Positions 18,897 to 33,012 of a stretch of DNA of 64,000 nucleotides are shown here, in pieces. The number at the start of each line of letters is the position of its first letter. Within the stretch, counting starts at the first letter, position 1. The notes under the pieces were generated by a model. The model searched no databases. It was not told where the DNA came from and saw nothing but the letters and a program-made list of their open reading frames with translations. A program made the translations under genes and the position numbers. The stretch covers positions 265,491-329,490 of the forward strand of contig JBKAGE010000038.1 of NCBI GenBank assembly GCA_046290225.1, given 5' to 3'. This DNA comes from Bradymonadia bacterium (lineage in GTDB: Bacteria > Myxococcota_A > Bradymonadia > UBA7976 > UBA1532).

Positions 18897-19520
18897 ATGG
18901 TGGTCCAGCTCGGCATCAAACCTCAGAAACGCGCCTCCTGGCCCTGTTATCACATCCTGGCGTGGAGGCGGCATGACGTGCCCGCGGCAGTGTTGGTTTT
19001 CACTCCCAGTCAGGCTGTGGCCGATTGGGCTGCGGAGCCGGTCAAGATGGGCTTTGGTCAGACTTACTGCCCGATCGTGGTGGGACCTGACGGCATACCG
19101 CGCATCGAGGCGCCAGATGTGGCCATTCAAGTACCACAGCTTGCATTGCTCTCGGCTCTGGCTCATGGGAACCGAAAACACAGTCGACCAGTGCTCGAAG
19201 CGTGTATCGAGTCGTGGGCGAGCCTCGACGAGGGCCAGGTGACCGACTACCATGATCTATTGTTGATGCAGCTCAATGCAGCAGTTCGAAAGGTGCTCCA
19301 CACCATGCTCAAAGAACGCAAGCGTGCATACCTGTCCGATACGTTCAACGATCTCGTTGACCAAGGCAAAAGGCAGACACTGCTCAAACTGGCACAGCTC
19401 AAGTTCGGCGAATTGACAGCGGAGCAAGAAACACGCGTTCGGCAGGCGGACGGTGAAATGCTCGAACGCTGGACCGAGAGCATCCTCACCGCCGAGACCG
19501 CTGACGACCTCTTCAACTGA
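18897..19520 (+). pseudogene. N-terminally truncated Rpn/YhgA-like protein with DUF4351-like C-terminus
   Basis: Begins at VVQL..K..SWP.Y, a mid-protein motif of this family; in-frame TAA at 18867 leaves no room for the N-terminus; C-terminal KFGEL...LERWTESILTAET; lower GC than flanks. Confidence 0.55.
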
Positions 19521-19526
19521 GCCTGC

Positions 19527-20198
19527 TCACCCGAAGTCTCGAGCCAACCCACGAATTTTGTGCTGCCAGTTGTAGACCACCTGTGTGTTTACCCCGAGGG
19601 CCTTCGCGGCATCTGCCGGTGAGCACCCATCGACGTAGAGCGCTCTCAGAACGAGACGACCACGCTCGGGCAGTTGGGCGTCCAGATGGGCGAAGAGTGC
19701 CTTAGCTTCAGAGCGAGCAGCCACCTGACGCTCTGGATCTACCTGCTCGTCGGCGATTTGGCCCATGACCTCGGGGTTCACCGCCTTCTGGTCCCCTCCG
19801 CGCTTTTGAGCCAGGCGTTTGCGCAAGATGCTCACCACCGTGCGCTCGGTCACCACCCCAACATAGCCCTCAAAGCTGGCCCCACGATCAGGCTCGAAGG
19901 CCATCAGGCGCTTCCCGCTCTCTTCGAGCAAAGCCAGCCAGACCTCCTGGGCATACTCGTCTCTCACGTCAGAGGCTACAGGTCGACGCCAATGACGCCG
20001 TAGGGTGTAACCCACCTGCGCCCGAACCACCGGCAACAGACGGCGGACCAGGCGGCGCATGGCCAGGGTGTTGCCCGAGAGGGCATCCCGCACCAGCGCA
20101 GCGTCGGCTTCGGGGTCTGAGGTTTGGCGTTCGTCGCGGCCTGCAGCCCCCACTGCCGCGGCGAACAACCCCAATATCCAGGAGAAGATGAGGGTCAT
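19527..20198 (-). CDS. ECF-type RNA polymerase sigma-70 factor
   Basis: Region 2-like DEYAQEVWLAL...FEP.RGASFEGY; region 4-like LPERGRLVLRALYVDG.SP.DAAKALG. Confidence 0.88.
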   Translation of the reverse strand: MTLIFSWILGLFAAAVGAAGRDERQTSDPEADAALVRDALSGNTLAMRRLVRRLLPVVRAQVGYTLRRHWRRPVASDVRDEYAQEVWLALLEESGKRLMAFEPDRGASFEGYVGVVTERTVVSILRKRLAQKRGGDQKAVNPEVMGQIADEQVDPERQVAARSEAKALFAHLDAQLPERGRLVLRALYVDGCSPADAAKALGVNTQVVYNWQHKIRGLARDFG

Positions 20199-21103
20199 CA
20201 GGGCGGCTGCTCTCCTCGATAGGTGACGGGGATCTCGATCCAGCGCAGGGCGCTGTTCTCTCGGGCATTTTTGGCGGTGGTGCCTGCGAGCCCCTCGAGG
20301 CCCTTCGCTTCTTTGGCCAGGGCGACATACACGAAGCGCTTGCCGGTGCGCGTACCGAAGATCGCACCGGCTTTGGCCTTGAGCAAGAAGGCGCCCTTGC
20401 GCTCCTTGATCTCGGTGGTGACGGCCTTCAGGCCCTCAGGGGTGTCAACAAAGACCTGCAGCGCGGGTGCCTTCCCGTCTGGGGCTTGCTCGGGCTTCAG
20501 GGTGATACGGATCTCGCTCACAGCGTCGAAGATGCGCTTGGCGTGGGGGTCCTCCTCGCCACGGATCTCTTGAATCATGCCCTGAACGGCGGCGACCTGG
20601 TAAGGCGAAGGCGGGGGCAGGCTGTCGGGGCGCATCAGCACCAGCACCAGGGCAGCAGCGGCGGCGATCACCCCGCTCCCGGCCCACGTGGTCCACCTTT
20701 TGGGAAACGGCACCACATTGCTGGGGCCCTCCTTGATGTTGGACGCTTCGCTGGAAGAAACAGCCTTTGCGATTCCGGCGCCTTCACCTTCGAGGAGGGT
20801 GTCGGAGTTGACCTGTTTCTCGATCTCGCCCACGGCCCACTGCTCCATGTCGCCAAGGGGCGCATCGAGGTCGTAGAGCATGGCTCTGGCGGCAGGATCT
20901 TCGACGAGCGCCTGCTCCACCTCGGCGGCCTCTTCGTCGCTGAGCGTGCCAGCCCGTAGAGCGAGGATGGTCTCGAGGGGTACCCCCTCGCCCTCTGGCT
21001 CAGCCGCTTCTTCATCTGGTGACGATGGCAAGTCTTCGAGCACGCCACCGAGGGCCCGGAGTCGGGCGTCGAGGGCTTCGTCGTTGGGTGTGTGCTCGGT
21101 CAT
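20198..21103 (-). CDS. Single-pass membrane anti-sigma factor-like protein
   Basis: N-terminal degenerate ZAS-like segment GTLSDEEAAEVEQAL; NVVPF followed by TM IAAAAALVLVL; extracytoplasmic domain; TGATG coupling to the sigma gene; AAGGA precedes ATG 21103. Confidence 0.75.
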   Translation of the reverse strand: MTEHTPNDEALDARLRALGGVLEDLPSSPDEEAAEPEGEGVPLETILALRAGTLSDEEAAEVEQALVEDPAARAMLYDLDAPLGDMEQWAVGEIEKQVNSDTLLEGEGAGIAKAVSSSEASNIKEGPSNVVPFPKRWTTWAGSGVIAAAAALVLVLMRPDSLPPPSPYQVAAVQGMIQEIRGEEDPHAKRIFDAVSEIRITLKPEQAPDGKAPALQVFVDTPEGLKAVTTEIKERKGAFLLKAKAGAIFGTRTGKRFVYVALAKEAKGLEGLAGTTAKNARENSALRWIEIPVTYRGEQPP

Positions 21104-21227
21104 GGCGCGTTCCTTTTGGACCCTGCACGGGCCCACCGGCAGTCTGACACATTCTGACGATGGGCTCACCTTCTGTGGGTGAGCTCACTGGGATCTACGT
21201 GAAATGGGGTGGTGCTCTTTTGGTAAG

Positions 21228-21527
21228 AGAGAGTTTGTCGGGCACGGGCACGGGCACGGGCACGAGTTGATACATATTCTGACCCGTGGCCCTTCCTGAA
21301 CTCAGGGCGAAGGTTACAACTGAAGCTGAGATGATGTGTTGTTGAACGACCTGAGAGTTCAGGTCTTGGGGTGTATGGAGGCCAAAAGTCGCACTGAGCA
21401 AAGCGTGGGGCTGGATGAAGGCTCCACCATCACAAACCCATGAGCGGAGTCATATAGGACAACGGGTCCAGATATGTATCAACTCGTGCCCGTGCCCGTG
21501 CCCGTGCCCGTGCCCGAAAAACTCTCT
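21228..21527. mobile_element. 300-bp MITE-like element with ~65-bp inverted repeats containing (CGGGCA)n
   Basis: Left arm AGAGAGTTTGT(CGGGCA)4CGAGTTGATACATAT; right arm reverse complement AGAGAGTTTTT(CGGGCA)5CGAGTTGATACATAT; no convincing internal gene. Mobility is inferred. Confidence 0.6.
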
Positions 21528-23895
21528 ATTTAAGCTGCATTGCCGAGGTATCCACAGCCCACGCCTTACCGAACTGAGTAATGGTGGCCACGAGCTGGGC
21601 TTTCTCGATGTTCACGATGCCCTTGGGCACCGCGAGATACTTGAAGAAGGCGCTGTCACCGGGGCGATAACCCTGACCATTGCTGGGCACAGCCAGGGGG
21701 AGGTAGGCCTGCTTGCCGTATTTGTCGGTGAGGAGCAGGTAAGGGCTGGTGAAGCGGGTGGTGGCGATGTCGTACTTGCTGCTGAAGTTGATGCTCACAT
21801 TGAGGTAGGGGAAGAGGTTGAGTACGGCGCAATCTGGACAGAGGGGCACTCGAGGCTGCGGGCCCACAGCACCAAGCGCATCACGACGCAGTCGGTCAGG
21901 CGGCTCACCCACAATCTGTGCAGGGCCAAAGCGCACATCATCATTGTTGGTGCAGTCCGTCCAGTCTACGCATGCATCATCACTCGTACCTGGCGCGTTG
22001 GCGGTGCACTGAGGTGCCGGCTCGGCCCCCTCCGGATCATACCCTGGCGGATTCCCGGGGAACGCATCACACACCTCCAGCCACTCCGCACATCGATCGA
22101 TGACATCAGGGCCTTGGCCTTGAGCCAGGCACCCAATGGCGGAGAGCAGCTCCCCACACTGCACCAGGTCATCAGCCGCCCCGACATTGAGAGCCCGCAC
22201 TGGATATCCCTGCCATGTTGAACGGTTGAGGTCATATGCGGTCAGGTAGAGCAGATCGCTCAGCTGGGCCCCACTCAACCGGGGTACTAGAGGGTCTGCG
22301 CTCCGCGCAGCGCCCAGATATGCCAACGCCCGTGCGAGGGCGCCCGTGGTCAGGGCAGCAGACACCGAAGTGCCCGTGTATGCTTCTGGGGCACCCGCGA
22401 GCGCACCTTGGGGTGTGAACACGTGCGCCCCTGGTGCGACGAGGCGGGGCTCTGCCAAGGCTCGGGGGATCGACACACCTGTCGGGGTGCCACGGGCATT
22501 GATCGCGCCGACAGCAAAAGACAGCGCCTCCCCCGCAACACATCCTTGCTGTTGATCAGACTTCACAGTGGTGCGGCTGTACTCACCAGGAAACAGCATT
22601 GGAGGCCGTGTAAGCTCTCCTCCGAGCCACCACCCATCTGTGCACGCGTCGAGGGGCTGGTTCTCATCCACCTTGTGCAACTCGGCCCGCTCACCGTTCA
22701 GTGGGCGATTGCCTGCAGCGGCAACGGCGAGGATCGGCCTCGCTGCAGTGTCCTGCTCCTGGGCGACAGCGAGCATGTAGCGCACCACGGCGCCAACTCC
22801 GTCCTCCTCTATGGCACAGCCCGGGCCACGAAGCGTACGTACACGCTCGTATTCTGGTAGCCAGCCGAGGCTGAGGTTCAACAGCAGGGGCCGGGCGGGG
22901 TCGAGCCCGTACACGGCCTCATCGATGGCCACACCCGTGAAGGCGGTGACCCCGACCCCTTCTGCGTCCATCACTTGCCAGGAGAAGATCTCTGCCGCTG
23001 TATCCGGCACCATCTGACGGATAAAGCCCACCATGGCGTCACCATGCTCGTTCACCCCAGCAGCAGCAGGATCAGGGTAGCGCCCCACGACGTCCACAGT
23101 GGGGATCGCCGCGTTGGAGACCCCAGTGTCGATGAGAGCGATTTGAGGCAGATCCCCCGCTGGTGGAGCGGGGACCTGCTGAGCAGGAGCGACGCTCATA
23201 TAGTCGAGGTGCCATCGATCGACCCCCGCCATCGGGCTGACGTTGCACGCCTCTCGCCCGATCTTCACCTGAGCGGCCTGAGCTGCGGTGAGACCATAGT
23301 CGGGGGCGAGCTGTGACACGATCTGACGCACCTGGGCGACAGCGTTGCATTGGGCGGGACCCAAGATGGGCAGGTAGGGATCCTGAGCGATGCCCTGGCC
23401 CACAAATCGAATACGCCAGAACCGCTGATGGCCATCAGCACGCCGACCATTCACATCTCGAAAAGGCAACACCGACGTCACCTCAACATCGACGCCGTTG
23501 CCGATGGCTGTACGGCATGGATCCCCACACGCATCGGCAGCACAAAACCAGGACTCGTCCACCACCCCAGTGAGCGCATCGTCGAGCTCTGTTTGGAACG
23601 CGCCCAAGAGTGGGTTCTGGGGTACCTCACTCGGCGCAGGTAGCCAAAGTGGGAAGTCCACGAAGAGCACTCGGGCTTCAGCACAGCTGTAGGGCGCCTC
23701 CGGCTCACCCGCGATCCCCAAGCTGGGGGGGGATGGATCACAGGGCCCCGGCGCAGGCTCTTGAGGCGTAGCAGACTGTATACATTGATTCTGAGCAGCA
23801 CTCTGGCCCGCGAGGAGCAGGCCCGTGATCATGAGCAACATCACACGTGAGTGCTGCATGAAGGCTGAATGTTGTCGTGCTCGGTGCATCTTCAT
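21526..23895 (-). CDS. Secreted S8 (subtilisin-like) serine peptidase
   Basis: IALIDTG (Asp), EHG (His), NLSLG, AAAGN (oxyanion hole), GTSVSAA (Ser); signal peptide. Start approximate (23895 or 23889). Confidence 0.88.
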   Translation of the reverse strand: MKMHRARQHSAFMQHSRVMLLMITGLLLAGQSAAQNQCIQSATPQEPAPGPCDPSPPSLGIAGEPEAPYSCAEARVLFVDFPLWLPAPSEVPQNPLLGAFQTELDDALTGVVDESWFCAADACGDPCRTAIGNGVDVEVTSVLPFRDVNGRRADGHQRFWRIRFVGQGIAQDPYLPILGPAQCNAVAQVRQIVSQLAPDYGLTAAQAAQVKIGREACNVSPMAGVDRWHLDYMSVAPAQQVPAPPAGDLPQIALIDTGVSNAAIPTVDVVGRYPDPAAAGVNEHGDAMVGFIRQMVPDTAAEIFSWQVMDAEGVGVTAFTGVAIDEAVYGLDPARPLLLNLSLGWLPEYERVRTLRGPGCAIEEDGVGAVVRYMLAVAQEQDTAARPILAVAAAGNRPLNGERAELHKVDENQPLDACTDGWWLGGELTRPPMLFPGEYSRTTVKSDQQQGCVAGEALSFAVGAINARGTPTGVSIPRALAEPRLVAPGAHVFTPQGALAGAPEAYTGTSVSAALTTGALARALAYLGAARSADPLVPRLSGAQLSDLLYLTAYDLNRSTWQGYPVRALNVGAADDLVQCGELLSAIGCLAQGQGPDVIDRCAEWLEVCDAFPGNPPGYDPEGAEPAPQCTANAPGTSDDACVDWTDCTNNDDVRFGPAQIVGEPPDRLRRDALGAVGPQPRVPLCPDCAVLNLFPYLNVSINFSSKYDIATTRFTSPYLLLTDKYGKQAYLPLAVPSNGQGYRPGDSAFFKYLAVPKGIVNIEKAQLVATITQFGKAWAVDTSAMQLK

Positions 23896-23988
23896 CCTCT
23901 CCGTCACCTGATGGGCCAGGGCCCCCAATGCCCTGAACCTACGCAGTTCCACGACGACTTCTTTTGGCGTCGGCGCTTTCGAGGCTGA

Positions 23989-26706
23989 TCACCTCGACCA
24001 CAGCCGAAAGGCTCTCCACACCTCGTCACCACGCTGCTGGGCTCGCTTTTGGGCCTCGTGAAAGGCCCTCGGCGTGCCCTGGGTAGGATACAGGCGATAG
24101 AAGTCTTTCATAAACTCTAAAGACTCCCCATCCTCAATTGGCCGTTCGGTCCCCACGACGAACCGGGCACCTGCGATCAAGAACGCCTCTGGTAGGCCAA
24201 TGCGAGCACCCCCTTTGACATTGCCTCCCTTGCCGGTGTCGCACCCATTGAGCACCAGAGTCTCTGCTTTTACTTGTGTCTGAAGCACGTCTTCCACGCT
24301 GAGGGTCTGACGCTCACTCAACCTGAGGTGTGAGGTCCAAGGATCTCCGTGTCGAATCACGCCATGGCCTGCAAAGTGAACGAGGCGGCTGTGTTGAATG
24401 CTCTCGATGAGGTTCGCTCGGGTGGCTTCGGAGCCAACCTTGAGGTTGATCTGCAGTGCGTTGTTGCCGAGCAGATCATTCAACGCCTGAGCCTCAACTC
24501 TCGCACCAGGTAGATTGCTTTCGGGGTCTGCCAGAAGCGTGAATGGCCCTTCGGAGAGCGCAGACGAAACACCAGGCACAGGCACCATGCTCGTCACGAG
24601 ATGGCGTGCACTGAGTGGCTGGCCGTTCAACTCGAGCTCAGCAAGATCGAACTCACGGAGCGGGCTGGTCAGCAAAACCTGAGTGCCCTCCCCCAGGGTA
24701 CGCTTCGTGAGCCATGCCTTGAGCGTCTTCGAGTTGCACTCGCTCAAGTAATGATCTTTGAATGCAACCGCCTCGGCGGCTCGATGGAGCACCGTACAGG
24801 CATCGCCTGAGGGATAGACGATGAGTTCAAAGGTGTGACTACCCGCTTCAGGGCGGATCGCATAGCGAGTCGAATGCGTATCGGAGGGCTTGAAAAAGGC
24901 GCTCTCAACCTCTTTTTTCAGGCTGTGTTTGATAGCCTCGGCCTGACTGTTCAATACCCTAATCTCACGCTCATCATATGCCAGCGCGATCTCTGATTCG
25001 AGTGCCTCTAGACGCTTCTTGAGCAGCCTGGCTCCTTGACTCTCAGACACACTCCGTTGGGCAACCTGATACAACACAGTATAAAAATTGGATACGGCGA
25101 GCATGATAACAGTCTCCACACAATCGGTATCCATCTGGGATTGGCAGAACCCCATCGCCTCTGAAAAGACATCACCATTGTCGCCAATGTAGCTCGAAAA
25201 CCCGTGTCGTGCCGAGGCATTTGCCGCCGACGCCACCAATAGCCCCGACGCCTTGAGATACATTGTACGTGCCTCTACATGCGCCTTCTGCGCTCGATAC
25301 ACACGTGCGAGCCCCAAAGTAGCCCGCCAGACGAGATCTGATGCCTCACTCCGGGTCTGGCTCAGTTCGGCATCGAGAAGGGCCTGATAGCCACTCATGG
25401 CCTCTGATACCTGCCCACGTGAGAACGCCAGCTCAGCTCGAATGAGACGCCAGAGCCTCTGGCTTTCGGGCTTCATACGGCCTTTTAGCCTGTTCAGATA
25501 TGCCTCTGCCCTTTCGAGTTCTCCATATTGGTACTCGAACCACGCTAAGTTAAGCGCTGCTGAAACCTCGACATCCTCTTCTGACAGTGCCTTTGCATGC
25601 TCTAAGAGATCAACCAAAGCCAGTTTCGACTGTTCGACCTTCTGATTTTGCTCAGATGCTGCATTGGCATTAAGTGCAATGCCTAGAATGCCAGCTTTGC
25701 CCTGCAGGCAGTAGGAAGCTGGAAGACCTTCACATCCCTCGACAATACTCAACAATTCAGGCAATAGCTGGCTGACCCCATCGAGTCGCCCAAGTCGATA
25801 GTTCACATCAAGAAGTTCCAGTCCCAAGGCACTTGTTTCCATTGGACTACCCCCTCCTCTGGAAACAGTATATGCCTCTCGATACTTCAATAGAGCTCTG
25901 TGAAACTCAGACTCAGTAATGAGTTTGAGGGCTTCGTAGTAGAGTCCCCTCGCCCGCCCCCCATAGTCCACCTCCAGCACATATCGCTCCCCCGCCTTCA
26001 GCATCCCCGTCACATCATCCAGTCGCATGTCCATCAGCGCGTAGTACGCACACGCCCGATGTCGCGCCCCTGCCTCTGAGACCCAGCCCAGCGACTCCGC
26101 AGTCTTCGCCGCCTCGAGCCACATCTCGCAGGCCTCCCCCTGTCGCCCCAGGCGTCCGAGCACGCGGCCCAGCTCCACCTGAGCCCACATCAGGTCTTCG
26201 CCCTTCAGCTCGGTAACCCGCGCCCTCAACAGCGCTTCCGCCGGCTTCAGCTCGCCTTTCTTGCGCAGCTTCACCGCCTCAGCCTGGGTCGGGCGCTCAC
26301 CTGGAGGCACGTCCCAGCGGGCGCGCCAGCGGCCCACCTCTCGCTCGTGGGCGTCTACCAGTCGCAACACCCCAGAGCTCAGCTCAGGCAGGCCCTCGGC
26401 CTCCACTTGGAACAGCCAGCCCCCCATGCGCTCCAGCAGCTTCACCTTCAGCGGCCGCTCGGCCCCTTGCGCGGGTGCCCAGAGCACCTGCCAAGCCTTC
26501 ACTTGAAGCGGACCCTCCACCCGGACCGATGGGCGCTTTTGCGCGTCGAACAGCCAGATCTCATCGCGATGAATCGCGCGGTAGCCCCAGAGTTGTAGCG
26601 CCACCGACTCCATCGGTGGAGGCGCGGGCTTTGGCGCAGGCGGAGGCTCCGAGCAAGCCCCGAGCAGGGCCATCCAGACGCACAGCCAGATCGTACGGTG
26701 ACCCAT
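23989..26706 (-). CDS. Lipoprotein with TPR-like repeats and C-terminal CHAT (caspase-like) protease domain
   Basis: Lipobox ALLGAC; helical TPR-like centre; NLPGARVEA, VHFAGHG (His), LVLNGCDTG (Cys), AFLIAGARFVVGT, WRAF. Confidence 0.88.
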   Translation of the reverse strand: MGHRTIWLCVWMALLGACSEPPPAPKPAPPPMESVALQLWGYRAIHRDEIWLFDAQKRPSVRVEGPLQVKAWQVLWAPAQGAERPLKVKLLERMGGWLFQVEAEGLPELSSGVLRLVDAHEREVGRWRARWDVPPGERPTQAEAVKLRKKGELKPAEALLRARVTELKGEDLMWAQVELGRVLGRLGRQGEACEMWLEAAKTAESLGWVSEAGARHRACAYYALMDMRLDDVTGMLKAGERYVLEVDYGGRARGLYYEALKLITESEFHRALLKYREAYTVSRGGGSPMETSALGLELLDVNYRLGRLDGVSQLLPELLSIVEGCEGLPASYCLQGKAGILGIALNANAASEQNQKVEQSKLALVDLLEHAKALSEEDVEVSAALNLAWFEYQYGELERAEAYLNRLKGRMKPESQRLWRLIRAELAFSRGQVSEAMSGYQALLDAELSQTRSEASDLVWRATLGLARVYRAQKAHVEARTMYLKASGLLVASAANASARHGFSSYIGDNGDVFSEAMGFCQSQMDTDCVETVIMLAVSNFYTVLYQVAQRSVSESQGARLLKKRLEALESEIALAYDEREIRVLNSQAEAIKHSLKKEVESAFFKPSDTHSTRYAIRPEAGSHTFELIVYPSGDACTVLHRAAEAVAFKDHYLSECNSKTLKAWLTKRTLGEGTQVLLTSPLREFDLAELELNGQPLSARHLVTSMVPVPGVSSALSEGPFTLLADPESNLPGARVEAQALNDLLGNNALQINLKVGSEATRANLIESIQHSRLVHFAGHGVIRHGDPWTSHLRLSERQTLSVEDVLQTQVKAETLVLNGCDTGKGGNVKGGARIGLPEAFLIAGARFVVGTERPIEDGESLEFMKDFYRLYPTQGTPRAFHEAQKRAQQRGDEVWRAFRLWSR

Positions 26707-26900: not shown

Positions 26901-27905
26901 ATGCGATACATCATGCCCCTTCTCCTGTGCCTCCCGATGCTCGCCCACAGCCATCCTGCCAGTCAGGGCACGCTCGTGCGGGCCATCGACACCTTCACCC
27001 ACCACCTGCAAGACCAGCGATACCCTGCAGCCCTGTCCTCGGCGGCCAAGGCCTTGGGCAATGCCGCTGAAGATCTCGCGCACGCCCGGCGGGGAGACGG
27101 CCGCCGCCGTGCATATCACCAACAATACCGTCAGCTCAGAGTCATGGTGGCCCGTGAAGGCCAGCGAGATGACCTGCTGCTCGATCTTTGGGACGATGTC
27201 GTGCGTCACAGCCCTGCTCGACGCCATCGTCGATACGACAGGCCTGCTCTCAATACACAGAGCTTGGATACCCTCGGCCGGGCCTGTGACGACATTTTCC
27301 CTCGGGCTCAGATCCCACGATGTGTCTCTTTGATCCGTGGTCACCCTGACGGCATCGCCCTCGTGAAGGCCTGTGGCGACGCCATGGGCGACGATCGCGC
27401 CGAGCTTCAGTGCGTCGAATTTGCCAGTCAGACCCGCTTCGCAGCGGCCCCCATGGTGCAGATGTGCGAGCAGGCCATGGGCAACGATCAAAAAGAGCTC
27501 GAGTGCATCAAGGCCGCTCGCCAAGGTGACTCCAGCATCACCAAGGTCATCTCTGCCTGTGAAGACGTCATGGACGGTGACGACGCCGAGTTGAAGTGCG
27601 TGGTGGCGGCGAGCAGCCTTCATGGCTTCCCCGAGGCCACGGTGCGGGCCTGTGACGCGGCCTTCAGTGGAGACGACTGGGAGCTGCGGTGCATCGACGC
27701 AGCTGCCGGTGGCCATGACATGGGACCCGTGGTCAAAGCCTGTGAAGAGGCCATGAGCAATGACGAGAACGAGCTGAAGTGCGTGCAGCTCGTGGCCCAG
27801 CGATCAACCGGGCGGCGCGTCGGCGCTGAGGCGGTGCGGTGGTGTGACGATCAGTTCAGCCAGGACGCCCGGGCGCTCACGTGTATCCAAGAGACCTTCA
27901 GGTAG
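26901..27905 (+). CDS. Secreted protein with ~6 Cys-pair helical repeats
   Basis: Repeats of about 31 aa such as VKACGDAMGDDRAELQCV and ISACEDVMDGDDAELKCV; hydrophobic N-terminus. Confidence 0.7.
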   Translation: MRYIMPLLLCLPMLAHSHPASQGTLVRAIDTFTHHLQDQRYPAALSSAAKALGNAAEDLAHARRGDGRRRAYHQQYRQLRVMVAREGQRDDLLLDLWDDVVRHSPARRHRRYDRPALNTQSLDTLGRACDDIFPRAQIPRCVSLIRGHPDGIALVKACGDAMGDDRAELQCVEFASQTRFAAAPMVQMCEQAMGNDQKELECIKAARQGDSSITKVISACEDVMDGDDAELKCVVAASSLHGFPEATVRACDAAFSGDDWELRCIDAAAGGHDMGPVVKACEEAMSNDENELKCVQLVAQRSTGRRVGAEAVRWCDDQFSQDARALTCIQETFR

Positions 27906-30221: not shown

Positions 30222-31712
30222 TCAGTACCAGAGGGCCTTGAGCTCCCCCACCGCCTGCTTGACCCGCTCTGGGGTCAGCCTCGCCATGTCCATCAGATCG
30301 AGCACGAACTTCACCGCGGTCCGCGGGTTGGTGAACGAGCCATCTGAGAGACCATTGAAGATCAAATCACCGATGAGGCCCGCCAGTGGCTCCACCCGAG
30401 GCAGCAGCTTGGGGTGACGCTCGGCGTAGATCTGCACGATGCGCCGGGCCATGGCCCGATAGTCCTCGGTGTTCAGGGGGGACAGCTCGGTGAGTCGATG
30501 ACTCGGCATCATCTCTGTGAGCAGCGTCTCCCCTTCGGCAGTGGGGGTCATGGCCATGACTGTGTAGAGCGGACAATCCCCCGGGAACCGATGGGGCAGT
30601 GACTTCATGGCGCCTCGGCCACCCTTGGGCTCGGCCTCGGGGGCAAAGGGCAGCTCGTCAGGGGGCAGCGAAGCCGCCACGAGGGCCCGGAACAGGCGCT
30701 CGGCGAAGCGCCTGTTCTCGGCGCCGAGCACACGGAACAGCTCCCCCTCATCGAGCAGGATCACCAGCCCCTTGTAGCCCGCGCAACGGCACAGCCCCGC
30801 CACCCCGCTGATGAGGTGGGCATAGATGTGAGCCCAGGGGCGATAGTCCATCATCGCCGGCAACGCCCGCTTGTTGTAGAGGCTGAACCGGCGGTTCATC
30901 GCCGGGGTGTGCTCCTGGGGCGCCCCTTCGAGCCATTCGATGACCGAGGCGGCCTCTTCTTCGTCGATGCGGGCGAGCAGCTTCAACGCCGGCGTCAGGT
31001 AGGGGTGGGGCACGACCGGATCGAGGAACCGGGTGTTCAGGCTCGCCGACTCCGTGGCCAGCGCCCGCTCCAGGAGAGGCTGCAGGCCGCGCCCCCCCTC
31101 CCCCTGGCCGTCGATGGCGGGGTGGCGCAGGCTCTTCATGAGCCCGCGGTACACCCGGCGGGGGTTGCTCGCAGGCACGTCGACGGGATCGAGAGAGACC
31201 ATCCCCACGGCAAAGCCTGCATCGAGGGCGCGGGCGGCGATGCACTCGAGCAGGTGTGTCTTGCCGGTGCCATAGTCGCCGAGAAACACCCGCGCGGCGC
31301 CGCGGGCTTCTTCGGGGCTGTCGATGCAGGCCTTCAGATCTGCGTCGATGCGCGCCAGCTCTCGATCGCGGCCCACAGTGTAGAGTTCGAGGCCTCGGGC
31401 AGGCACTGTGCCCAAGCGCAACGCCTCGAGCAGCTGCAGACGATCTCGGGACAAATCGGGTGCGGTGAAGTCACCGGGCGGCTCTGGTGGCGCGCTGGGC
31501 TCGGGCTCTGGCGGCAGGCCACCTTGAGGGATGAGCTGGCCTACGGGCAGCTGGATGTCCACGCGGCCCAGATCGTCGAAGCGGACGAGGGCAGCGCGGC
31601 CCGCCCGCACCAGACGCACCACCTCGCCGGCGCCATGGATACGATGGGTAATGCGATCTCCGGGCTGCAACACCCGCCGGGGTGAGGCTTCAGAAGTCGT
31701 CAAAGCCATCAT
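30222..31712 (-). CDS. BrxD/DUF2791-like P-loop ATPase with N-terminal SH3/Tudor-like domain
   Basis: LEALRLGTVP..GL...TVGR; Walker A GDYGTGKTH; Walker B GYKGLVILLDEGE; NPRTAVK. Confidence 0.82.
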   Translation of the reverse strand: MMALTTSEASPRRVLQPGDRITHRIHGAGEVVRLVRAGRAALVRFDDLGRVDIQLPVGQLIPQGGLPPEPEPSAPPEPPGDFTAPDLSRDRLQLLEALRLGTVPARGLELYTVGRDRELARIDADLKACIDSPEEARGAARVFLGDYGTGKTHLLECIAARALDAGFAVGMVSLDPVDVPASNPRRVYRGLMKSLRHPAIDGQGEGGRGLQPLLERALATESASLNTRFLDPVVPHPYLTPALKLLARIDEEEAASVIEWLEGAPQEHTPAMNRRFSLYNKRALPAMMDYRPWAHIYAHLISGVAGLCRCAGYKGLVILLDEGELFRVLGAENRRFAERLFRALVAASLPPDELPFAPEAEPKGGRGAMKSLPHRFPGDCPLYTVMAMTPTAEGETLLTEMMPSHRLTELSPLNTEDYRAMARRIVQIYAERHPKLLPRVEPLAGLIGDLIFNGLSDGSFTNPRTAVKFVLDLMDMARLTPERVKQAVGELKALWY

Positions 31713-33012
31713 CCTCTTCGTCGGCGTCGAGCAGCGTCTGGGCGCCCCCCATCACCCGCGCCCCAGCGTCGACGGCGTCGATTTGAGTCTCACCCGAGAG
31801 CGCCTGCTCCGTGAGCAACGCCACCCACGACTTCACGAAGATGCGCCGGTGGCTCACCTCGAACTGGGCCTCAGAGGCCTCTTCGGCGAGGGCCCGCAGG
31901 TTTCGGCCCTGCACCTCAGGGTCGAAGCGCCGTTTTCGGGCGATGGAGAAGACCTCCAGAATTCGGGCCCCGATGGCCTCGAGCAGCTTCGCAGGGGGCA
32001 GGTCGAGGGCCTCGAGATCGATGAGGGCCGACTGCGGGCTGGTCACCGAGAGGGGCACGGGGCTCGACAGCCGCTGCTGCAGCGCGGGGTACTCGGGCAC
32101 CACGTTCCGCAAAAACTCCGGCGGCACGGCGTAGGCCACCATGACCCCCGGCAGCGCCGACTTGCCGCACAGATCCACCATCTCCCGCAGATTGTCCGTG
32201 AGGCGGGTGCGGTTGCGGGTGGTGGCCCCGATGCTCAGGTTGCGGTCGAGCTCGTCGAAGAGCAGCACGGTGCCGGTGAACTCGAGGCCCTTGAGGGCCT
32301 GACACACACCCCGCAGCATGGCGAAGGCGTTGCTCTTGGTGATCGATTCGAAGACCCCCACCTCGCGGTGACTGCTCGGCGGCACCTCTTCACCGAGCAG
32401 CCAGGCGGCGAGTACATCTTGCTTGCGCAGATCGTCGTCGAGCACCGCGAGGCCATACTCGGAGATGGCGTTGCGCAGAGAAGGGCTCTCCACAGGCAGG
32501 TTGCGCACGGTGCGGTAGAGCCACGCCCGGACCGCCCGATCGCCGTGCTCGTCCCGACGGGCCTCCACGAGATCCCGCAGCAGATCGGGCAGCCCCGTGG
32601 TGGGCAGCAGCGGCTCGTCACCGGGGGGCGGCGCCCGCAGGGCCTTCACCACGGCCCGATAGACCGCCAGGGGCTCGTGGAACGGACACTCGGAGGGCGA
32701 GAGCCCCACATAGGCGCTGGCATAGCCCGAGGCCCAGGCGAGATCTCGCAGGCACATCAGGAAGTGGGTCTTGCCTCCGCCGTAGTAGGCCTGCACCAGC
32801 TTGAAGGTGGATCCCCCGGCAGGGAGCAGCATGTCGAGATACTCGTCGCGGATCACGTCGAGGTAGGTGTGGTTGCCCACGTTGATGTGAGCCACACCAC
32901 GCTCTGGAGGTGTACCCGTCTCTCCGAGGCTCTGGATGATGCGCATGGCCTGGGGCCTGGAGAGCGCGTCTACGGCGTCGGTGGCTGTTGCTACGTGAAT
33001 GTCATCGCCCAT
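31690..33012 (-). CDS. BrxD/DUF2791-like P-loop ATPase
   Basis: IIQSLGETGTPP..GV..INVG; Walker A AYYGGGKTH; Walker B VLLFDELD; YPALQQRL. Confidence 0.82.
   Translation of the reverse strand: MGDDIHVATATDAVDALSRPQAMRIIQSLGETGTPPERGVAHINVGNHTYLDVIRDEYLDMLLPAGGSTFKLVQAYYGGGKTHFLMCLRDLAWASGYASAYVGLSPSECPFHEPLAVYRAVVKALRAPPPGDEPLLPTTGLPDLLRDLVEARRDEHGDRAVRAWLYRTVRNLPVESPSLRNAISEYGLAVLDDDLRKQDVLAAWLLGEEVPPSSHREVGVFESITKSNAFAMLRGVCQALKGLEFTGTVLLFDELDRNLSIGATTRNRTRLTDNLREMVDLCGKSALPGVMVAYAVPPEFLRNVVPEYPALQQRLSSPVPLSVTSPQSALIDLEALDLPPAKLLEAIGARILEVFSIARKRRFDPEVQGRNLRALAEEASEAQFEVSHRRIFVKSWVALLTEQALSGETQIDAVDAGARVMGGAQTLLDADEEDDGFDDF

Follow-up and report, generated by a model that had tools for sequence, protein, structure and literature searches.

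What could connect a caspase-like enzyme outside the cytoplasm to a sigma factor inside it? The question is raised by four neighboring genes from a Bradymonadia genome, which encode a TPR-CHAT lipoprotein, an S8 protease, a single-transmembrane (TM) anti-sigma factor and an ECF sigma factor. A preliminary description had proposed a cascade in which the activated CHAT enzyme processes either the subtilase or the anti-sigma factor and thus releases the sigma factor. We analyzed the locus within a window of 64,000 nt (the whole stretch of DNA considered here), in which no Rfam matches were found. We lean, with somewhat better than even confidence, toward one branch of that cascade: the exported TPR-CHAT protein is predicted from sequence to act as a site-1 protease on the neighboring anti-sigma factor, cutting it after Arg181 and freeing the ECF sigma factor.

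Layout and recurrence of the four-gene unit

All four open reading frames are intact and co-oriented on the minus strand, at the coordinates given in the preliminary description (the features below lie on this strand unless noted). Among 59 sigma-anchored GTDB loci, many of them cut by contig ends, we found the anti-sigma gene in 54, CHAT in 42 and S8 in 34; the complete set of four, whose co-occurrence had been named as a check, is present in 32/59. A second set, anchored on the same S8 family (n = 34), contains all four genes in 20 loci, some in 6 and none in 8; the two sets overlap, and 15 loci were flagged as duplicates. The titled relatives are metagenome-assembled genomes of Myxococcota, Bradymonadia or Deltaproteobacteria, and the Bradymonadia genome itself carries several paralogous units. 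In ~10 of the 59 loci, CHAT was not found near sigma and anti-sigma in the flanks fetched, and a trans-acting CHAT or another activator would thus be needed there. The genome (99.4% complete) has no Cas1 or RAMP matches, in line with the CRISPR independence proposed earlier.

The unit is not a single tight operon: it is interrupted by a 420-bp gap with a repeat element and contains two internal promoter-like motifs. The element, an inverted repeat (MITE/REP-like) of ~300 bp (21225..21530, no strand assigned), is located between S8 and anti-sigma genes, which are only 12-16 bp apart in the same-order C35 paralogue and in L054. It has 43 near-full-length matches on 27 contigs, the window copy counted, and is a passenger outside the mechanism. 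The split by this element, together with the lower GC content of the CHAT gene (0.55 for 24001-26000 versus ~0.63-0.67 in the surroundings), might suggest a chance cluster, but the same four families recur across dozens of loci in widely varying orders and orientations, which refutes this explanation and leaves it a negligible probability.

The CHAT protease and the Arg181 loop of the anti-sigma factor

The TPR-CHAT protein (905 aa, 23989..26706) was assigned from Pfam, lipobox, catalytic dyad and a structure model. Its CHAT domain (PF12770, E 5e-30, residues 730-892) is located behind TPR repeats and contains the His/Cys dyad reported earlier, which we identify as His781 (24364-24366) and Cys822 (24241-24243), both retained in all 40 covering rows of a 43-row alignment. 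The lipoprotein signal is likewise borne out: the lipobox reads LLGA-C18 (Cys18, 26653-26655), and 32/37 relatives having an N-terminus show a lipobox-like one, with signal peptides assessed by eye and by hydropathy. In the model, a beta domain and the TPR helices are accompanied by a long pair of helices and by two alpha/beta domains; its best Foldseek matches are Myxococcus xanthus DdvA (top), Csx29 and separase. DdvA is also the only CHAT protein among the 60 sequence matches listed (E 2e-12). Two further residues are candidate S1 acidic residues: Asp727 (24526-24528), which follows the first protease-domain strand and is found in 40/43 rows, and Asp859 (24130-24132), at the start of a later helix and found in 39/43, the misses being mostly gaps in both cases. 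As judged from secondary-structure order, their placement agrees with that of the two acidic residues reported to anchor the P1 Arg in Arg-specific enzymes of clan CD (PMC4626109).

The anti-sigma factor (301 aa, 20198..21103, the start at 21103 being the more likely one) was defined by its overlap with sigma, hydropathy, homology and a model. It consists of a zinc-less ZAS-like domain (residues ~43-80), a TM helix (residues ~139-157) and a periplasmic Ig-like domain (residues ~164-297). The TM helix is its single hydrophobic segment, a TM-like segment is present in 54/56 locus anti-sigmas, and the stop/start overlap TGATG agrees with the translational coupling to sigma described before. For the N-terminal domain, a match was obtained to the anti-sigma factor ChrR (E 1e-4), but the DdvA N-terminus scored only E 0.74; the zinc ligands HxxxCxxC, present in 70/151 alignment rows, are missing here.

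The predicted cut site, Arg181/Gly182 (Arg codon 20561-20563), is found in a loop of the anti-sigma structure model. Arg181 is conserved in 53/55 locus anti-sigmas and followed by Gly, Ser or Ala in 50/55; among 150 representatives clustered at 50% identity, the position is Arg in 140 and Lys in 4. We compared this residue with position 859 of the associated CHAT proteins and found the pairs Arg-Asp 46 times, Arg-Glu once, Arg-gap once, Leu-Ala once, Gln-Glu twice (one locus with two CHATs), Met-Asp once and Gln-Asp once. The Fisher test gives p 0.014 for loci that are non-independent, with the L015 residue alignment-ambiguous, and the pairing is weak because Asp859 is kept in 2/4 non-Arg loci (L030, L033).

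Arg181 could instead be a structural or docking residue. The same conservation is expected if CHAT merely binds the Arg181 loop uncut or retains it as a pseudo-substrate, with sigma freed by a conformational change or by a general envelope protease. A precedent for such binding is the gingipain prodomain, described as inhibiting by inserting an Arg loop (PMC4357240), and DdvA is reported to have an intact dyad, an incomplete active site and unproven self-cleavage (PMC11506125). The retention of both dyad residues throughout the covering rows, and of a small residue after the Arg, as favored by cut sites, speak against binding only, which we regard as unlikely. The Csx29-type enzymes discussed in the same paper cleave after Met or Leu; CHAT specificity thus varies between enzymes, making an Arg-specific cut less certain.

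If CHAT does cut the anti-sigma factor, the sequence of events may be as follows. CHAT would be made without a sigma-type promoter and be gated by its own TPRs. Once activated, it would cut Arg181/Gly182, ~24 residues outside the membrane, and most of the Ig-like domain would be lost. An RseP-type site-2 protease would next cut the remaining stub, as for truncated DdvA: RseP is reported to degrade DdvA lacking its TPR-CHAT region (PMC11506125), and the genome analyzed here encodes M50 proteases as well as Lgt. The freed sigma factor would then bind AAAAGA-N16/17-(C)GTA promoters, inducing S8 and the anti-sigma/sigma pair as well as ~15-20 genes that are dispersed over the genome and encode lipoproteins and secreted proteins, a regulon possibly shared among paralogous sigmas. 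A fuller version, in which an Arg-specific periplasmic CHAT lipoprotein frees a membrane-tethered sigma via Arg181/Gly182 to run a genome-wide secreted-protein program that covers its own subtilase, with paralogues insulated by matched pocket and target changes, is more tentative, and we would give it about one chance in three.

The sigma factor, its predicted targets and the S8 protease

The ECF sigma factor (223 aa, 19527..20198) scores above the cut-off against TIGR02937. Its residues 1-19 form a hydrophobic leader that is translated, as indicated by the start overlapping the anti-sigma stop, by a GC3 of 0.90 and by differences at codon positions 1/2/3 of 40/26/65 in 9 close pairs. The leader, which probably holds sigma at the membrane, is lineage-linked rather than module-specific, being common to two unrelated ECF families of the lineage; it is dispensable for the module and represents a separate lead. 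It may resemble the pro-sequence of pro-sigmaK. A translated N-terminal extension also characterizes pro-sigma factors of the pro-sigmaK and BldN type, and pro-sigmaK is described as a precursor matured by an intramembrane protease (PMC6242693). No conserved cut site was seen in the leader alignment.

A promoter-like motif, derived from upstream regions of relatives with the window excluded, points to the predicted targets. In the window, the ECF-type core AAAAGA-N16-CGTA is found before S8 (CAAAAGA-N16-CGTAG, 23939..23966) and, as a second copy suggestive of autoregulation, before the anti-sigma/sigma pair (21195..21222), and is absent before CHAT. The two exact copies compare with 0/100 shuffles containing any, for a pattern written from these copies themselves. 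In the training loci, where the counts are partly circular, the motif precedes anti-sigma in 18/53, S8 in 6/33, CHAT in 5/39 and sigma in 1/59 cases (background 1.2%); in a further count, it precedes 8/44 training CHAT genes, and CHAT may thus sometimes belong to the regulon. In held-out metagenome loci, one of which (L188) is a near duplicate of a training locus, the figures are 3/7 for S8, 2/7 for anti-sigma, 1/8 for CHAT and 0/17 for sigma (background 2.8%). Across its own genome the motif has 30 sites, 19 with a Shine-Dalgarno-bearing downstream ORF, of which 16/19 have a signal-like N-terminus; wrong-spacer controls yield 1-4 such ORFs from 20-26 sites, and the A-tract baseline is 202/727. 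Counts by spacer length are highest at 16-17. Relative to the reversed pattern, the motif is enriched in some module-bearing genomes (G000 34 versus 20, G024 21 versus 4, G002 16 versus 6) but not in others (G021 0 versus 10, G015 0 versus 3, G006 68 versus 93). We predict that the motif is a target of the unit's sigma or of a paralogous one.

The S8 subtilase (~787 aa, 21526..23889), assigned from Pfam (PF00082, E 5e-9), triad and family alignment, has an Asp-His-Ser triad with an oxyanion Asn (Asp254, His282, Ser508 and Asn394), invariant in 42/42 aligned rows, and the catalytic residues are intact in 34/35 locus S8s. The full triad reported earlier thus stands; the long N-terminal region, located ahead of the catalytic Asp, is read here as a signal peptide and a presumed prodomain. 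Subtilases usually mature through self-cleavage. A start at 23895/23889 appears more likely than the GTG at 23952, given a Shine-Dalgarno sequence upstream and the promoter-like motif lying over the GTG. The C-terminal tail is Cys-rich with an invariant P..C..C motif (here GPQP..CPDC). This tail domain, with its invariant CxxC, weakly resembles the lone lipoprotein of the S8-less C78 locus (hhalign probability 27%, E 7e-4).

Does the S8 protease relay the signal? The other branch of the proposed cascade, in which CHAT, once activated, processes pro-S8 and the mature protease goes on to cut the anti-sigma factor, gains some plausibility from the predicted extracytoplasmic location of both enzymes, from the adjacency of CHAT and S8 without sigma on C73, from the near-invariant S8 residue Arg212 (34/35) close to the prodomain end and from a CHAT-to-caspase cascade described in Haliangium (bioRxiv 2023.06.23.546230). 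Against it, the family consensus has Glu and an invariant Cys after Arg212, and S8 is missing from seven CHAT/anti-sigma/sigma loci with long flanks covered (L014, L056, L069, L085, L087, L088 and L108), with a C14 caspase in its place in L014, L056, L108 and the truncated L061. S8 also sits behind a sigma-type motif in the window and in its three closest same-order relatives (L054, L175, L176). The S8-processing branch is therefore not upheld and seems improbable to us, while the anti-sigma-cutting branch fits Arg181 and the CHAT acidic residues.

Only slightly less improbable is that S8 itself cuts the anti-sigma factor or amplifies the signal, with the binding of CHAT gating a basal amount of S8, and S8 made under sigma control adding positive feedback. 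S8 is family-specific, catalytically intact and linked in 32/59 loci, and its tail recalls the C78 lipoprotein; however, the seven S8-less loci count against this role, as do four loci (L038, L039, L043, L044) in which S8 occurs by itself although long flanks were covered, and an Arg followed by a small residue suits a clan CD enzyme with an acidic pocket. Among the 59 loci, S8 with anti-sigma or sigma and without CHAT occurs only in L068 and L096, both contig-truncated. With CHAT as the preferred cutter, S8 looks like a sigma output, possibly a feedback component, rather than a relay.

Comparison with known systems

Neither the combination of genes nor the export of CHAT is in itself new. The preliminary description had singled out the exported form; a periplasmic TPR-CHAT controlling an ECF sigma factor has already been published for DdvA (PMC11506125). 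That paper proposes that a CHAT protease can make the site-1 cut in regulated intramembrane proteolysis, terms this unprecedented and states that the role can be validated only once the signal is found. The split system makes the question testable: the enzyme is a protein of its own, the substrate domain is small and soluble, and predictions are available for the bond (Arg181/Gly182), the pocket (Asp727/Asp859) and the promoter. It also suggests what the numerous TPR-CHAT genes of bacteria that are not tied to CRISPR might do, and offers a regulon prediction, the first for an unclassified sigma clade. If the model is true, a site-1 protease role would for the first time have been shown for a caspase-like enzyme.

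The genomic context of ECF54 was reportedly treated by Huang et al. in 2015. The supplement of PMC7826278 lists, as the neighborhood of ECF54, a sigma factor combined with a subtilase and a TPR-CHAT protein, and the proteolytic regulation proposed for it is described as untested (PMC7826278, PMC8999054). Our unit shares the subtilase and TPR-CHAT genes near an ECF sigma but differs from ECF54, which is described as 100% actinobacterial, without a recognized anti-sigma factor, with a carboxypeptidase-regulatory-like gene at +1 and with a predicted promoter GTATCAG/CTCC (PMC7826278), whereas we find a TM anti-sigma factor and AAAAGA/CGTA. In the type III-E Csx29-Csx30-CASP-sigma system, a gated TPR-CHAT protein, whose overall fold is shared with our CHAT model, cuts a C-terminal-domain loop of a sigma inhibitor; that system is, however, cytoplasmic, Cas7-11/RNA-gated, cut at a non-Arg site and free of a membrane step (PMC10028731), and neither a Cas1 or RAMP match in the genome nor an Rfam match in the window points here to the Cas7-11 partner and CRISPR locus of a type III-E craspase. 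The order of cuts, site-1 outside and site-2 within the membrane, would be that of RseA/DegS/RseP (PMC6242693), but with a caspase-like cysteine protease as the site-1 enzyme.

The closest parallel is DdvA/DdvS of Myxococcus xanthus (PMC11506125, PMC6061681; PDB 8rot, 8rw5, 8rlz). Both systems have an ECF sigma adjacent to a cognate single-TM anti-sigma factor with a ZAS-type N-terminal domain (homologous here, with the zinc ligands missing), a periplasmic His/Cys-dyad TPR-CHAT as proposed site-1 protease upstream of RseP, and promoter cores similar in kind (AAc and cGT). In DdvA, the TPR-CHAT region is fused as the periplasmic domain of the anti-sigma factor, whereas here it is a separate lipoprotein gene and the C-terminal part of the anti-sigma factor is a small Ig-like domain, in which the Arg loop is conserved. 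The DdvA operon contains a putative C25 peptidase, in contrast to the linked S8 protease, and our unit further differs in its genome devoid of Cas1 or RAMP matches and in its predicted targets, which are scattered exported proteins. It is thus likely that the unit represents a split variant of the known Myxococcus DdvA-type switch.

Composition and distribution of the four-gene unit

We found the four genes of the preliminary description as minus-strand ORFs in the window, coding for a CHAT protein (23989-26706), an S8 protease (21526-23889), an anti-sigma (20198-21103) and an ECF sigma (19527-20198). Pfam and NCBIfam assign CHAT, S8 and the ECF sigma to their families and give only a weak anti-sigma match (E 8e-4) for the third gene. 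The CHAT protein indeed carries a lipoprotein signal, with lipobox Cys18 near its N terminus, and the expected His/Cys dyad (H781/C822). In its predicted structure (mean pLDDT 79), a beta domain at the N terminus is accompanied by a TPR solenoid, a pair of long helices and a protease region that resembles separase, and the nearest structures to the model are DdvA, Csx29 and separase. A phmmer search of the PDB with the single CHAT sequence returned 0 matches; a profile search did succeed. The full triad ascribed to S8 is invariant in 42/42 aligned rows. The anti-sigma has a ChrR-like N-terminal domain devoid of zinc ligands and, beyond a single TM helix, an Ig-like ectodomain, and its stop codon overlaps the sigma start, in line with the single-pass, translationally coupled arrangement described before. 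Fold searches with the ectodomain yielded generic Ig-like folds only (best Z 8.1, rmsd 3.2, 94 aligned), and the Atlas hints at DUF4384 for a minority (33%) of cluster members; we thus give this domain no family name. PADLOC, run on the four genes, reported a weak CHAT-domain match (BovA) and nothing else. Within the CHAT gene, GC content drops to 0.55 in the TPR-coding part (24001-26000), markedly below its surroundings, and low GC3 is also seen in the CHAT genes of contigs C73, C68 and C37 of the same genome.

The four-gene unit is real and conserved. The window's own genome contains 11 CHAT matches, with complete units on the window's contig (C38) and on C35 and C76; sigma, anti-sigma and CHAT occur without S8 on C78 and C68, CHAT and S8 on C73, and S8, CHAT and an anti-sigma fusion on C37. 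Neighborhood conservation, which had been named as a check, holds across genomes: among 59 sigma-anchored GTDB loci, 54 contain the anti-sigma, 42 CHAT and 34 S8, and 32 have all three and hence the entire unit. The S8 family was found in 15/27 genomes of the same family and in 0/33 other relatives, and the 34 S8 loci fetched from same-family genomes contain all four genes in 20 cases, some in 6 and none in 8; these S8-anchored loci overlap with the sigma-anchored set, and kin are not independent. Metagenome loci also carry the unit. Gene order and orientation are highly variable, which argues for selection on linkage. In a phylum sample with 3 candidates scored per genome, the unit was found in 11/14 same-family genomes and 0/286 others. 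A pattern scan located it in records titled Archangium, Sandaracinaceae and Polyangia, and its occurrence outside the family is therefore patchy rather than nil. Neighbor clustering, based on a crude gene caller, revealed no fifth conserved gene except a C14 caspase (4 loci).

A hairpin element of ~300 bp (21225-21530, z -11.6) separates S8 from the anti-sigma; its long terminal inverted repeats are built of tandem GGGCAC units. It has 43 near-full-length matches on 27 contigs of the genome and, judged by its sequence, is a MITE- or REP-like element; on C35, in the paralogue of the same gene order, S8 and the anti-sigma are 12 bp apart. Two adjoining BrxC/D-like AAA ATPase genes (30222-33012) are located about 3.5 kb upstream of CHAT and did not emerge as conserved neighbors in the clustering of loci. 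A divergent gene (26901-27905) encodes a secreted 334-aa protein with Cys-rich repeats of ~30 residues and no family match, and an Rpn/DUF4351-like ORF (18897-19520) immediately follows the sigma gene, with a similar ORF near the C76 unit.

A candidate cleavage site in the anti-sigma

We asked which protein CHAT might cut, the anti-sigma or S8. The anti-sigma varies strongly in sequence (mean column identity 31%), yet its G175 and R181 are each kept in 53/55 locus copies; among 150 library representatives, G175 is found in 149 and R181 in 140. In the model, R181 maps to a loop just outside the membrane, and the residue after it is usually Gly, Ser or Ala. On the side of the protease, D727 is kept in 40/43 and D859 in 39/43 CHAT sequences. 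Arg-specific clan CD enzymes have acidic residues at comparable places (PMC4626109, PMC4357240), and the order of secondary-structure elements, the sole basis of the comparison, suggests that D727 and D859 are equivalent to the acidic residues of their Arg pockets. We paired the anti-sigma residue with CHAT position 859 after removing 15 duplicate loci and found R-D in 46 of 53 pairs, R-E in 1, R-gap in 1, L-A in 1, Q-E in 2, M-D in 1 and Q-D in 1. Position 859 is still Asp in two of four non-Arg loci. CHAT could also bind the anti-sigma without cutting it, a reading that we regard as unlikely.

Seven loci contain CHAT, anti-sigma and sigma without S8. The earlier proposal of a cascade from CHAT to S8 is not borne out, as S8 is missing from these seven, and it is the least probable of the mechanisms weighed here. 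S8, with its invariant triad, may instead serve as a site-1 enzyme or an amplifier, which is only a little more probable. A C14 caspase occurs in three of the seven S8-less loci and in one truncated locus; in a scan of ten other candidate proteins, six of which neighbor S8-less loci, no additional protease family was detected. The absence of S8 from seven loci, together with the conservation of R181 and of the CHAT acidic residues, makes CHAT and anti-sigma look like the core pair, as far as sequences can tell.

It is thus cleavage of the anti-sigma that we favor, with moderate confidence, as part of the most likely order of events. A signal would activate the TPR-gated CHAT protein, which would then cut the anti-sigma at R181/G182. 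A second, RseP-type cut would release the sigma, which may in turn transcribe S8, its own anti-sigma/sigma pair and genes for exported proteins scattered over the genome.

Two paralogous units of the genome depart from the common plan. The unit on C37 (L017:3922-11123) encodes a 613-aa anti-sigma fusion with no recognizable sigma; here the conserved Arg is replaced by Leu and CHAT D859 by Ala. The S8-less unit on C78 (L014:2388-11170) comprises a C14 caspase, an anti-sigma, two CHAT genes and a sigma that probably starts at CTG. A 166-aa lipoprotein with weak likeness to the S8 tail lies there behind the promoter motif described below.

Putative promoter motif, predicted targets and the sigma leader

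We derived a putative promoter motif by counting words in the upstream regions of relatives (68 regions, with the window excluded). The counts pointed to an A-tract and, 16-18 nt on, a GTA. In the window, CAAAAGA-N16-CGTAG occurs in two exact copies, one ahead of S8 and the other ahead of the anti-sigma, and CHAT is not preceded by any; three CAAAAGA/CGTAG matches at spacers 15-17 occur in the entire genome. Motif counts are far above background in training loci and held-out metagenome loci alike, and enrichment is mixed across other genomes. The three nearest relatives that share this gene order carry the motif ahead of S8 only. We read S8 as a predicted target of the sigma, with the motif not attributable to one paralogous sigma. 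A scan for sigma-70 promoters and terminators remained at chance level.

In the window's genome, 19 motif sites are followed by an ORF, and in 16 of these cases the ORF has a signal-like N terminus, against a baseline of 28% (Fisher p 3e-7). Of 16 such products scanned, 13 have no Pfam match; the remaining three comprise a second S8 and two repeat proteins, one of the RCC1 and one of the HEAT type. The predicted output would read as a set of functionally uncharacterized exported proteins. The loci fetched for this putative regulon (L113, L115, L121, L122, L126 and L128) encode large secreted proteins, mostly with no Pfam match, among them the second S8 of 1275 aa, the RCC1-repeat protein and an Ig-domain-containing, lipase-like protein; two members are paired with a downstream partner gene.

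A hydrophobic start of about 10-15 residues, likely a membrane tether, is found in 41/66 module sigmas. A start codon falls inside the scored interval in 33 of these 41, an ATG follows the leader in 1 only, and the leader evolves as coding sequence. It is absent from 25/66 (in L095 and L100, among them, a shortened form scores below the cut-off) and from the Archangium- and Sandaracinaceae-titled records, and 44/92 database homologues, as annotated, carry it. On the sigma tree it is scattered, with 8 changes, only 2 of which are forced by well-supported branches. Among 45 sigma-like ORFs of the genome, a rough control with some poorly anchored rows, only the four module sigmas and a single unrelated ECF score positive for the leader. 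The latter (L132:3661-4341; contig C8, 51660-52337) shares it with most orthologues across the class (L133-L174), in which the hydrophobic stretch is short and usually precedes basic residues; it is missing from five or six phylum members at greater distance. We thus rejected the leader as a module-specific regulatory part, as it is missing in 25 module sigmas and present in an unrelated ECF and its orthologues. Its spread across the class instead makes it a lineage trait, and membrane-tethering leaders may be lineage-wide among ECF sigmas. A literature search, thin in subscription papers, returned no paper on such a leader.

Comparison with known systems

We compared the unit to other CHAT-containing systems. 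Neither Cas1 nor a RAMP gene was found in the window's genome, consistent with the CRISPR independence proposed earlier, and the unit is not a craspase (PMC10028731). In our literature search, with subscription papers thinly covered and a catalogue entry possibly missed, no paper on a split exported unit was found. The unit shares its gene combination with ECF54 (PMC7826278) but differs in phylum, in promoter and in having an anti-sigma, which ECF54 lacks. The DdvA/DdvS pair of Myxococcus xanthus (PMC11506125) works in a way like that predicted here, yet the present unit is not a member: here CHAT is a separate lipoprotein rather than fused to the anti-sigma as in DdvA, and the anti-sigma has no zinc site. 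The unit renders the question of CHAT as a site-1 protease testable.
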